A DNA stretch of 4,395 nt from a virus (IMGVR_UViG_2671180631_000010); one strand, 5' to 3'. Shown: positions 1 through 4,395, counted from the stretch's first letter. The notes: generated by a model from the sequence alone, not told the origin. Numbers and translations: made by a program.

Positions 1-79
1 GCTTTGAACTCTTTAGAGTAACGTTGGGTTTTTCTGCTCATTATTAGCTCCTTCTGATGCCATTCTATTTCAGGAAGGA

Positions 80-343
80 GTGTCCGTTAAACTCAGGCTA
101 CCTCAGGTTATTCGCTTCTGGGCATGGGCGGATCAACAAATGATAGACGGTAATGCAGATTGTAACGCTCGCGGCGTTACAAAAAGTGCAATAGATCGCA
201 TCACTTTTATGTCTGGTTTTGCTGATGCGTTAATTCAGGTTGGATGGCTGGTCGAAAATGACGGAGGGCTTTCTCTACCTAACTTTGAACGTCATAACGG
301 AAAAAGCTCTAAAAAAAACGGGCGGTTACAAACGAGCGAGTAA
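80..343 (+). CDS. N-terminal fragment of a prophage replication initiator (putative origin-binding domain); likely one frameshifted gene with 447..782
   Basis: Frame-2 ORF from GTG 80 to TAA 341-343, preceded by purine-rich AGGAAGGAG at 72-80 (overlaps the GTG, so spacing is atypical; in-frame ATG at 140 is an alternative start). Frame has stops at 5-7 and 14-16, so it cannot begin further upstream. Ends inside an A8 run (311-318), after which the coding signal continues in frame 1. Confidence 0.6.
   Translation: MSVKLRLPQVIRFWAWADQQMIDGNADCNARGVTKSAIDRITFMSGFADALIQVGWLVENDGGLSLPNFERHNGKSSKKNGRLQTSE
162..180. repeat. 19-bp iteron-like palindrome GTAACGCTCGCGGCGTTAC (arms GTAACGC/GCGTTAC)
   Basis: Read directly; 16 of 19 positions identical to the second copy at 371-389. 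A GTAACG half-site also occurs at 18-23. Confidence 0.55.
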
Positions 344-2995: not shown

Positions 2996-3025
2996 TTGAT
3001 TTCATATTGGCGAGGTAAGTAGAAT
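2996..3025 (+). promoter_or_regulatory. Candidate sigma70 promoter: -35 TTGATT (2996-3001), 18-nt spacer, -10 TAGAAT (3020-3025)
   Basis: Hexamers read directly. Nearly identical to the motif at 3518-3545, including a GACT just downstream of the -10. Points into the N block. Confidence 0.35.
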
Positions 3026-3043
3026 GACTGCGGGTGCTTGAGG

Positions 3044-3080
3044 CTATCTGCTTCAGGCATGAACACCAAAAGGCAGATAG
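3044..3080. repeat. Inverted repeat CTATCTGC-N21-GCAGATAG
   Basis: 8-bp perfect arms at 3044-3051 and 3073-3080. Would lie in the 5' leader of a transcript from the 2996-3025 promoter; no U-tract follows, so not a terminator. Confidence 0.3.
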
Positions 3081-3133
3081 AGAAAAGCCCCAGTTAACAT
3101 TACGCGTCCGGCAAGACGCTTAACATTAATCTG

Positions 3134-3430
3134 NNNNNNNNNNNNNNNNNNNNNNNNNNNNNNNNNNNNNNNNNNNNNNNNNNNNNNNNNNNNNNNNNNN
3201 NNNNNNNNNNNNNNNNNNNNNNNNNNNNNNNNNNNNNNNNNNNNNNNNNNNNNNNNNNNNNNNNNNNNNNNNNNNNNNNNNNNNNNNNNNNNNNNNNNNN
3301 NNNNNNNNNNNNNNNNNNNNNNNNNNNNNNNNNNNNNNNNNNNNNNNNNNNNNNNNNNNNNNNNNNNNNNNNNNNNNNNNNNNNNNNNNNNNNNNNNNNN
3401 NNNNNNNNNNNNNNNNNNNNNNNNNNNNNN
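3134..3430. other. 297-nt block of undetermined bases (N)
   Basis: Seen directly. Flanked by a promoter-like motif upstream and a stop codon plus terminator downstream. Confidence 1.
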
Positions 3431-3454
3431 CATCCTCAACGCACCCGCACTTAA

Positions 3455-3497
3455 CCCGCCCATCGCTGTGATCTCTCAGCGTTTCGGCGGGTTTTTT
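3455..3497 (+). terminator. Rho-independent terminator
   Basis: GC stem CCCGCC (3455-3460) pairs with GGCGGG (3486-3491); inner stem CGCTG (3464-3468) pairs with CAGCG (3477-3481); followed by T6 (3492-3497). An in-frame TAA at 3452-3454 ends a + strand frame emerging from the N block immediately before the hairpin. Confidence 0.55.
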
Positions 3498-3517
3498 GTT
3501 GTTTATTTCCGGTGAAT

Positions 3518-3545
3518 TTGATTCGCGCACCTTCGCAGATAGAAT
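3518..3545 (+). promoter_or_regulatory. Candidate sigma70 promoter: -35 TTGATT (3518-3523), 16-nt spacer, -10 TAGAAT (3540-3545)
   Basis: Hexamers read directly, located just downstream of the terminator and about 80 nt upstream of the ATG at 3627. Confidence 0.4.
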
Positions 3546-3626
3546 CGACTCACTTAAGTAGCGCGCAGGGAGAAGAGGGATGGACCCCGAACAGGGGAGA
3601 GCTATTTATCTGGAAGGATTCTGAAG

Positions 3627-3914
3627 ATGAAAATCGAAGAATTGCGTGAAATTTTTAGTGAAAATGGCCTCTATGCTGTGCGCGTTGAGAATGGAGCGAT
3701 TGTCAGCCATTGCCGCATTAGATGTTTGCAATCTCAACAAAGGAAGAGCGGTGCTGTGTTATTTTATTTTTGTAATGGACTTCTGACGGACGGTTTTATT
3801 TTGCGTGAGGACGAATTTGTCACATCATTACGGGTTTTGAAAGAGATTGGTTTTAAGGCTGGTTTTCTGCTTTTGCTGAAGAATAAACTCATCTACAATC
3901 TTGAGCAGGATTGA
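3627..3914 (+). CDS. Hypothetical small protein (95 aa)
   Basis: ATG 3627 preceded by GGAAGGA at 3612-3618; stop TGA 3912-3914. Appears more AT-rich than neighbouring genes. No recognisable motif. Confidence 0.5.
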   Translation: MKIEELREIFSENGLYAVRVENGAIVSHCRIRCLQSQQRKSGAVLFYFCNGLLTDGFILREDEFVTSLRVLKEIGFKAGFLLLLKNKLIYNLEQD

Positions 3915-3952: not shown

Positions 3953-4306
3953 ATGGCACATATACAACTGGTCAAACAAACCTCTTCCGGATTACTTCTC
4001 CCGGCGACGCCGGAGAGTTGCGATTTTCTGCATCAAATCAAAATAGGTGAGTGGATACACGCAGACTTTAAGCGTGTGTGTAACTACGCATTCCACAAGC
4101 GTTTTTTCAAACTCCTGCAACTGGGTTTCGATTACTGGACTCCGGTCGGTGGGGCGATCACGCCTCGCGAACGAAAACTGGTGTCCGGTTTCGTTGATTA
4201 CCTGTGTGAATCAGTAGGCCGGGAACATACGCCAGCTCTGAGCGAAGCCGCAGAGCAATTGAGGTGTACTGGCAATAGCGGACACTACCATTTGTTCTTT
4301 TTTTAA
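3953..4306 (+). CDS. Hypothetical protein, probably a lambdoid nin-region-type protein of unknown function; possibly truncated at a T7 run
   Basis: ATG 3953 preceded by GGAG at 3942-3945 (the track's TTG 3911 start is less likely). Stop TAA 4304-4306 lies at the end of a T7 run (4298-4304); the adjacent frame stays open to the window end. Confidence 0.6.
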   Translation: MAHIQLVKQTSSGLLLPATPESCDFLHQIKIGEWIHADFKRVCNYAFHKRFFKLLQLGFDYWTPVGGAITPRERKLVSGFVDYLCESVGREHTPALSEAAEQLRCTGNSGHYHLFFF

Positions 4307-4317
4307 GCAGCCATCTG

Positions 4318-4395
4318 ATGATATTTTTCCCTGAAGGCTGCCGGGGAGATATTCCCCAGACGAGAGTGACGACGCTGACGATTGTAGAAAATCTC
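4318..4395 (+). CDS. Partial ORF running off the window end (MIFFPEGCRGDIPQTRVTTL...); either a separate gene or the frameshifted continuation of 3953..4306
   Basis: Frame 1 is open from 4279 to the window end with ATG at 4318; no clear Shine-Dalgarno. Confidence 0.25.
   Translation, partial: MIFFPEGCRGDIPQTRVTTLTIVENL

Follow-up and report, generated by a model that had tools for sequence, protein, structure and literature searches.

The DNA analysed here is a stretch of 4,395 nucleotides (nt) from a virus (IMGVR_UViG_2671180631_000010; the window, with positions counted from its first letter), and represents part of the nin region in a Rac/Qin-like lambdoid prophage. Two promoter-like motifs that share the hexamers TTGATT and TAGAAT stand on its plus strand, one ahead of a masked unit that we identify as a hok/Sok toxin–antitoxin cassette, the other ahead of a rem-like gene, which probably encodes an antirepressor, and an irsA/DUF1367 gene. 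Each of the two is very probably a genuine sigma-70 promoter, and we refer to them as P_hok and P_rem. A preliminary description of this DNA took the shared hexamers as a sign of common regulation. We instead consider it likely that the two promoters are separate and unrelated, and that their resemblance is coincidental.

The hok/Sok cassette, the rem-like gene and their promoters

The genes of the window run in the order ydaV (dnaC-like, partly masked), DUF977, a zinc-ribbon open reading frame (ORF), QueH, the masked unit, a gene of 95 amino acids (aa) and DUF1367. Prophages of E. coli FDAARGOS_944 (L003) and of Shigella flexneri (L006) match the window at 99.6–99.9% identity. L003, an unmasked and intact relative with 99.9% identity, served as the source for the features that lie under runs of N in the window. 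These runs differ in length from the real sequence, the one at 3134–3430 having 297 N for 277 nt in L003 and L006 and the one at 1230–1287 having 58 N for about 305 nt of ydaV in the relative, so that coordinates under the masks are approximate (Table 1).

Table 1. Features of the window that bear on the two promoters, in order of position; Nx denotes a spacer of x nt between two hexamers
Feature	Position	Strand	Remarks
IS600 end	1–109		99% identity to the IS600 copy of the Shigella flexneri locus L006
hok −35, TTGATT	2996–3001	+	N18 from the −10; in register through the lineage's 10-base-pair (bp) deletion
Vestigial ancestral hok −35, TTGGCG	3007–3012	+	Now 7 nt from the −10; N17 in relatives
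hok/mok −10, TAGAAT	3020–3025	+	Ends 7 nt ahead of G3032
mok/hok mRNA	3032–3499	+	Rfam model, Hok match and RNA fold
5′ tac element	~3032–3043	+	Part of mok/hok mRNA
Sok antisense RNA (approximate)	3078–3155	−	Read from L003; offset valid upstream of the mask
mok/hok coding region	3134–3430 (masked)	+	Read from L003
3′ fbi element	~3434–3446	+	Part of mok/hok mRNA
hok intrinsic terminator	3453–3499	+	Stem 3453–3460/3486–3493 and T run; −25.1 kcal/mol, z score −4.4
rem −35, TTGATT	3518–3523	+	N16; TTG invariant in 41 distinct rem loci
rem −10, TAGAAT	3540–3545	+	In 106/106 loci, 21–22 nt upstream of the leader block
Predicted rem leader, 75 nt	3552–3626	+	Start placed by the position of the −10
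Purine-rich block GCGCGCAGGGAGAAGAGGGATGG, 23 nt	3561–3583	+	Strong Shine–Dalgarno sequence (SD) and AUG at 3580; nearly invariant
Micro-ORF MDPEQGRAIYLEGF	3580–3624	+	ATG 3580, TGA 3622–3624; form of this lineage
GC hairpin CCCC-GAACA-GGGG	3585–3597	+	Directly 3′ of the upstream AUG
rem-like gene, 95 aa	3627–3914	+	SD GGAAGGA at 3612–3618; probable antirepressor
irsA/DUF1367 gene	3953–4259 (ORF to 4306)	+	Cut by IS600; DUF1367 Pfam E value 2e-96 in the L003 copy
IS600 end	4259–4395		Sequence comparison; L003 similarity stops at 4259

By its sequence, the masked unit is a hok/Sok type I toxin–antitoxin cassette. The Rfam family RF01794 (sok/hok-leader) starts exactly at 3032, with G3032 as model position 1. 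In the window the mask cuts this match at model position 83 of 157, and it scores 58.7 bits where the gathering score is 59; in the unmasked L003 it reaches 117 bits over the full model. The Hok ORF of L003 (51 aa), which is masked in the window, matches HOK_GEF (PF01848, Hok/Gef domain) with an E value of 4e-23. The RNA read from L003 4253–4718 (466 nt) folds so that nt 1–12 pair with the 3′ element CCUCAACGCACCC in both the minimum-free-energy and the centroid structure (z score −8.7), and in these models the pairing corresponds to the tac/fbi fold-back that characterises hok mRNAs. Such pairing makes the full-length hok mRNA untranslatable, and the antisense Sok RNA acts against this mRNA. 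Inspection of the L003 minus strand revealed a putative promoter for Sok (TTGCCT-N17-TAACCT) and a terminator made up of a hairpin and a run of T; in the window, the 5′ part of Sok and its promoter fall under the mask. No tRNA genes were found under the mask. The upstream ATG usually called mok opens a 70-codon ORF in frame with hok at L003 4366–4578, and the Rac 442/2 record annotates mok in another frame relative to hok.

The preliminary description had placed motif 1 at the start of the hidden unit, and the leader model beginning at 3032 supports this placement. With +1 at G3032, TAGAAT occupies −12 to −7. The −10 element of plasmid R1 hok (TATGAT) has the same position, and mutations in it abolish transcription (PMC9841398). 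A TANNNT hexamer, mostly TAGAAT, stands 6 nt before GGGTGCTTGAGGC in all 104 hok copies that we compared, which comprise 45 distinct upstream sequences, and the −35 element in these homologous loci is variable, yet present at N16–18 in most copies. The start of the leader, the placement of the −10 and its conservation together identify motif 1 as the promoter of the mok/hok mRNA.

The cassette resembles known hok/Sok loci (parB of plasmid R1 and the chromosomal hokD of Qin) in its Hok ORF, RF01794 leader and tac/fbi fold-back, and also in its Sok promoter and terminator, its −10 element at −12 to −7 and its intrinsic terminator. It differs from R1 hok in having TAGAAT instead of TATGAT as the −10, and from the known loci in that the window lineage has TTGATT-N18 for TTGGCG-N17 and an inner hairpin in the terminator loop. 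This hairpin (CGCTG...CAGCG) is formed by a lineage-specific insertion of about 24 nt, and a simple terminator scan missed the hok terminator because of the resulting long loop; in K-12 and most relatives the terminator is compact (CCCGC-TTCG-GCGGG-T5). At K-12 hokD, this promoter and the sok region were lost to a relBE insertion (PMC6379469).

Motif 2 follows the hok terminator and precedes the ORFs at 3627–3914 and 3953–4306, all of which are present as first described. We compared 106 rem loci found through the leader sequence and a further set of 79 found through the Rem protein; a search of genome contigs with Rem returned 3 loci only, and the diversity was taken from IMG/VR scans. Among the 106 loci, TTGnnn stands 16 or 18 bp upstream of TAGAAT, with one class having TTAACT. 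The upstream regions of the 79 protein-found loci are arranged likewise and bring in additional classes, among them TTGCTT-N16. The −35 element elsewhere reads TTGAAG-N18 (K-12 Qin) or TTGAGG, TTGCCT or TTGATA at N16, and the arrangement is kept in at least 10 unrelated upstream sequence contexts. Across 41 distinct sequences, column conservation is 0.94 in the −35, 0.57 in the spacer, 1.0 in the −10 and 0.70 from the −10 to the start. At the sequence level, conserved hexamers around a variable spacer are the footprint of a real promoter. P_rem thus appears as a conventional sigma-70 promoter, of which we found no earlier description. From the position of its −10, transcription would start at about A3552, and the K-12 equivalent is predicted at about 1,644,973–1,644,976 on the minus strand of NC_000913.3.

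Resemblance between P_hok and P_rem

A promoter scan and an exact pattern search agree on motif 1 as TTGATT-N18-TAGAAT (2996–3025) and on motif 2 as TTGATT-N16-TAGAAT (3518–3545), both on the plus strand, so that the positions, hexamers and spacers of 18 and 16 nt in the preliminary description were correct. The exact composite pattern was observed twice, compared with 0.00 expected from 200 shuffles. By contrast, the window holds 4 promoter-like sites where 3.7 are expected and 4 copies of TAGAAT where 1.7 are expected. The first count is close to expectation and the second only mildly above it, and the hexamers alone are therefore weak evidence; what is improbable under the random model is the identity of the two hexamer pairs.

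The shared −35 TTGATT is specific to the window lineage at both sites. In relatives, including E. coli 042, phage HannyBb, Rac-SA53 and most IMG/VR loci, the hok −35 is TTGGCG, TTGGCA or TTTGCG at N17, and TTGATT sits 28 bp upstream of the hok −10. Comparison of 3007–3019 with L004 and L013 revealed a 10-bp deletion in the spacer, which removed a GTAACGGTAG-like sequence and occurs in the window lineage only (6 of the 104 hok copies). TTGATT stands at N18 from the hok −10 because this deletion displaced the ancestral TTGGCG-N17. On this alignment, the hok promoter acquired the shared TTGATT as its −35 only secondarily.

The GACT that had been noted just after the −10 at both sites holds up in part. 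It directly follows motif 1 (3026–3029), but at motif 2 one C intervenes (TAGAAT-C-GACT, 3547–3550), so that the register differs by 1 nt between the motifs. A TAGAAT-GACT element had been proposed for comparison among related prophages; in about 100 loci the −10 hexamer is kept at both sites, as TAGAAT in all rem loci and in most hok copies, whereas the GACT is variable, its position being taken by TGCT, GGCT or GCCT at hok and by AAAA, GAGG or GATT at rem. Local alignment of the hok and rem promoter-plus-leader regions from five loci gave p values of 0.06–0.35 against shuffles, and we rejected paralogy of the two promoters on this non-significant result. An 8-mer, TTAAGTAG, occurs near both starts, at −17 to −10 at hok and at +3 to +10 at rem.

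One possible explanation for the resemblance is that both promoters share a TTGATT...TAGAAT element with GACT and come under joint control, for instance that of a single repressor or activator. The two exact composite matches, which the shuffled sequences do not produce, would fit this explanation, as would the use of TAGAAT as the −10 across both promoter families and the presence of TTAAGTAG close to both starts. However, the identity of the −35 hexamers is a lineage-specific product of the 10-bp deletion, the GACT varies among loci and differs in register between the two sites, the similarity of the regions does not go beyond chance, and the 8-mer lies at different distances from the two starts. 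We therefore regard co-regulation as very improbable, and the step from shared sequence to common regulation is not upheld by a −35 specific to one lineage, a variable GACT and an alignment no better than shuffles.

Several points weigh against our preferred reading, in which P_hok and P_rem are two separate and functional sigma-70 promoters. Each motif matches the sigma-70 consensus at only 9 of 12 positions, with the hexamers 16–18 bp apart, and the window shows no excess of promoter-like sites. Published supplements, as far as they could be retrieved, gave no mapped transcription start for P_hok or P_rem of this lineage and none for the rem gene of K-12; they comprised Cappable-seq, SMRT-Cappable-seq, Rend-seq, a differential RNA sequencing (dRNA-seq) comparison and EDL933 Cappable-seq, and were searched by K-12 coordinates near 1,644,97x or by sequence. 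The 10-bp deletion may have kept, raised or lowered the activity of P_hok. The related loci are mostly from E. coli and Shigella prophages, which recombine freely, and part of the hexamer conservation may therefore reflect recent common ancestry rather than selection. Finally, we treat TTAAGTAG as a chance match, and a common binding site there is possible in principle.

The rem–irsA operon and its Gifsy counterpart

The Rem protein of the window is 67% identical to K-12 Rem, and both belong to PHROG 340. Experiments have shown that K-12 Rem acts as an antirepressor against DicA (Ragunathan et al. 2023, PMC10448788). In this study, the sole one on Rem that we found in the literature, the condition or signal that induces Rem is stated to be unknown, and deletion of rem had no effect in the laboratory. 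By analogy, the window allele would act as an antirepressor as well. The K-12 Qin locus and the window share a homologous protein, the same leader block, the same −10 and the same place after the hokD terminator. Unlike in the window, the K-12 rem promoter is TTGAAG-N18-TAGAAT, the upstream ORF has 3 codons (MVP), and the gene behind rem is followed by DUF968 (ydfU) and not by DUF1367; the C terminus of the window Rem is also different.

The irsA/DUF1367 product is 53% identical to the Gifsy-1 irsA homologue. In the window the gene is cut by IS600 at about 4259, so that the last ~47 nt of the ORF at 3953–4306 are insertion sequence. IS600 lies at both ends of the window and the prophage immunity region of the intact relative (L003 1–900) is absent upstream, which together mark the window as a prophage remnant of Shigella type bounded by insertion sequences. 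The L003 copy of DUF1367/irsA (5154–5750) also matches PHROG 319, 'NinB/Orf homologous recombination mediator' (E value 2e-68). In L003 no terminator follows DUF1367, which adjoins DUF1364 and then Q. Directly upstream of the hok promoter, at 2288–2974, lies QueH (epoxyqueuosine reductase, PF02677, E value 2e-65), a prophage-borne tRNA-modification gene in the nin region. The DNA from hok to irsA in PP818812.1, named Actinobacillus phage vB_Apl-pPE4, is 94% identical to this E. coli/Shigella prophage region; such a match is unexpected for a Pasteurellaceae phage, and the record could represent an E. coli-derived phage or a contaminant.

The gene order of the window parallels the induction operon of the Gifsy prophages, which consists of a terminator, a promoter with a LexA box, dinI, an antirepressor gene and irsA (Lemire et al. 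2011, PMC3121763). We found this order in the Gifsy-1 sequence, where the terminator is almost identical to the K-12 hokD terminator in its compact form. Like the dinI-gfoA/gftA-irsA operon of Gifsy-1/2/3, the rem–irsA unit lies about 1–2 kb downstream of the replication genes and behind a rho-independent terminator, with a sigma-70 promoter, a small antirepressor gene and then irsA/DUF1367. Unlike the Gifsy operon, it has no dinI, whose place is taken by the 75-nt leader with its upstream AUG and hairpin, and the leader has CTT-N10-CAG where the LexA box has CTG-N10-CAG. Rem and the protein at the antirepressor position of Gifsy-1 (LT2; a gftA copy according to the paper) have no detectable sequence similarity. 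No LexA box (CTGT-N8-ACAG) was found near either promoter, even with 1 mismatch allowed, and CTG-N10-CAG was absent from the 106 rem loci; the same search detected the box of Gifsy-1 at 37253–37268, which served as the positive control. LexA control of the rem promoter was rejected on these grounds.

The gene pair behind motif 2 had first been described as a self-contained unit typical of phage morons. A moron, that is, an autonomous accessory cassette unrelated to phage development, would fit a unit with its own promoter behind a terminator, and the GC content falls to 0.42–0.43 over rem from about 0.50 in the flanks, although this dip is small. Against this, the K-12 homologue of Rem is a prophage antirepressor, the gene order is shared with Gifsy dinI-gfoA-irsA, and DUF1367 in L003 runs without a terminator into the next gene and then Q. 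The moron label is thus unlikely to apply to a rem antirepressor homologue and an irsA gene that are syntenic with Gifsy and lack a terminator of their own in the intact relative. The upstream hok/Sok cassette, which would have both its own promoter and its own terminator, fits the description of a moron better.

It is also possible that motif 2 is inactive, that rem and irsA owe their expression solely to read-through, either out of hok or out of the early right operon, and that the hexamers are kept for another reason, for example as a recombination junction or a protein-binding site. The lack of an entry in the retrievable transcription start supplements, the consensus match of 9/12 and the report that rem deletion is without effect, with the inducing signal unknown, are compatible with this possibility. 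On the other side, conserved hexamers whose variable spacer is fixed at 16 or 18 nt in many unrelated contexts form a classic promoter footprint, and a terminator lies directly upstream. Moreover, induction could not begin with an antirepressor whose own expression required the repressed early operon, and the Gifsy counterpart has its own promoter. We consider an inactive motif 2 improbable.

We therefore return to two separate promoters, both of which would fire. P_hok would start the mok/hok toxin mRNA at G3032, and this transcript would end at the terminator at 3453–3499. P_rem would start at about A3552 and give rise to the 75-nt leader followed by the rem-like antirepressor and irsA/DUF1367. 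An antirepressor is needed while the repressor silences the early promoters, which accounts for a promoter of its own behind a terminator, as in Gifsy. TAGAAT would be a −10 with one mismatch to the consensus that was conserved independently in each promoter family, and the likeness in TTGATT would have arisen at P_hok through the 10-bp deletion of this lineage.

The leader of rem and its possible role

The purine-rich block GCGCGCAGGGAGAAGAGGGATGG in the predicted leader has a conservation of 0.98 (in rem loci picked by protein similarity and not by the leader), compared with 0.57 in the promoter spacer and 0.93 within the coding sequence of rem, and it is also present in Rac and Rac-SA53 despite different flanks. 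The GC hairpin behind the block is the sole helix of the RNAalifold consensus (4 bp), with 0 compensatory pairs. Among 29 hairpin variants, the stem is kept, with G-U pairs in a few of them, and the loop of 3–5 nt is freely variable. Rfam scans of the window and L003 returned no family matching the rem leader, with sok as the sole hit, and no alternative terminator or antiterminator hairpins were found in the leader. A search of the 9-kb relative for a trans-acting antisense partner of the leader returned only the opposite strand of the leader itself and a few chance 9-mers. We found no description of the combined SD–AUG block and hairpin in the literature. The promoter–leader cassette also precedes another gene, of 55 aa (MNDKELIAALS..., phrog_34610), in five loci (L044, L097, L118, L036 and L111), where DUF968 and not DUF1367 comes next. 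This gene is probably another antirepressor allele, possibly with a different specificity.

The micro-ORF that begins at the upstream AUG ends 2 nt before the ATG at 3627, as had been read directly from the sequence, and it had been suggested that it could couple or attenuate translation of the gene behind it. This layout resembles leader-peptide control by termination–reinitiation at UGAUG, in that the short upstream ORF, which has a strong SD, closes at the main start codon or directly beside it, here and in about one third of relatives. Unlike in leader-peptide control, the peptide, its length, its frame and the position of its stop vary among rem loci. The upstream ORF has 3 codons (MVP) in the commonest, K-12 type and 8, 11, 14, 15, 18 or 22 codons elsewhere. 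The upstream AUG lies 43–48 nt from the AUG of rem and all three frames occur, so that in some loci the upstream ORF is in frame with rem and yields an N-terminally extended Rem. A stop abuts the rem start in roughly one third of loci, the window among them. Because peptide, length and frame vary, the peptide is not the selected feature and coupling by an adjoining stop and start is not general; the suggestion thus retains the stop–start layout in this lineage, but not a general role. The small-ORF supplement of a Ribo-RET study has no entry for the K-12 upstream AUG at 1,644,945.

We suspect that the leader controls Rem synthesis after transcription, which would suit an antirepressor that has to stay silent in a prophage lacking LexA control. 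As an extension of the two-promoter reading, the leader, with its SD and upstream AUG, its hairpin and a GGA-rich stretch reaching to the rem SD, may be a post-transcriptional switch that keeps the antirepressor off; possible modes are ribosome capture by the upstream AUG, coupling, or an RNA-binding protein such as CsrA or Hfq. We put this forward tentatively. The block is conserved beyond the spacer and the coding sequence and is kept ahead of the different 55-aa gene, the hairpin keeps its stem while its loop varies, and the LexA core is absent from 106 loci although an antirepressor must be tightly controlled. We also take GAGGGAUGG to resemble the CsrA motif from systematic evolution of ligands by exponential enrichment (SELEX). 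However, the hairpin shows no covariation, the leader belongs to no Rfam family, the peptide and the stop position are not conserved, and the sequences compared are closely related. In addition, rem does not appear in the CsrA supplements from crosslinking and immunoprecipitation (CLIP) and RNA sequencing, as far as these could be retrieved, and the block could simply be the ribosome-binding site from which a longer, ancestral form of Rem was translated. It is more doubtful still, but conceivable, that block, hairpin and GGA-rich stretch form a dedicated post-transcriptional gate that replaces the Gifsy LexA box in prophages of the Rac/Qin type.

With motif 1 as the well-understood hok promoter and motif 2 as a standard sigma-70 promoter, the finding itself is an ordinary one, and its useful outcome is the annotation of a masked hok/Sok cassette and of a rem–irsA antirepressor operon. 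This operon appears to be the E. coli/Shigella counterpart of the LexA-controlled induction operon of Gifsy, without the LexA box. P_rem and the invariant 75-nt leader offer a concrete target in the search for the signal that induces Rem, and a gate in the leader, if there is one, would make prophage induction respond to a signal different from DNA damage.

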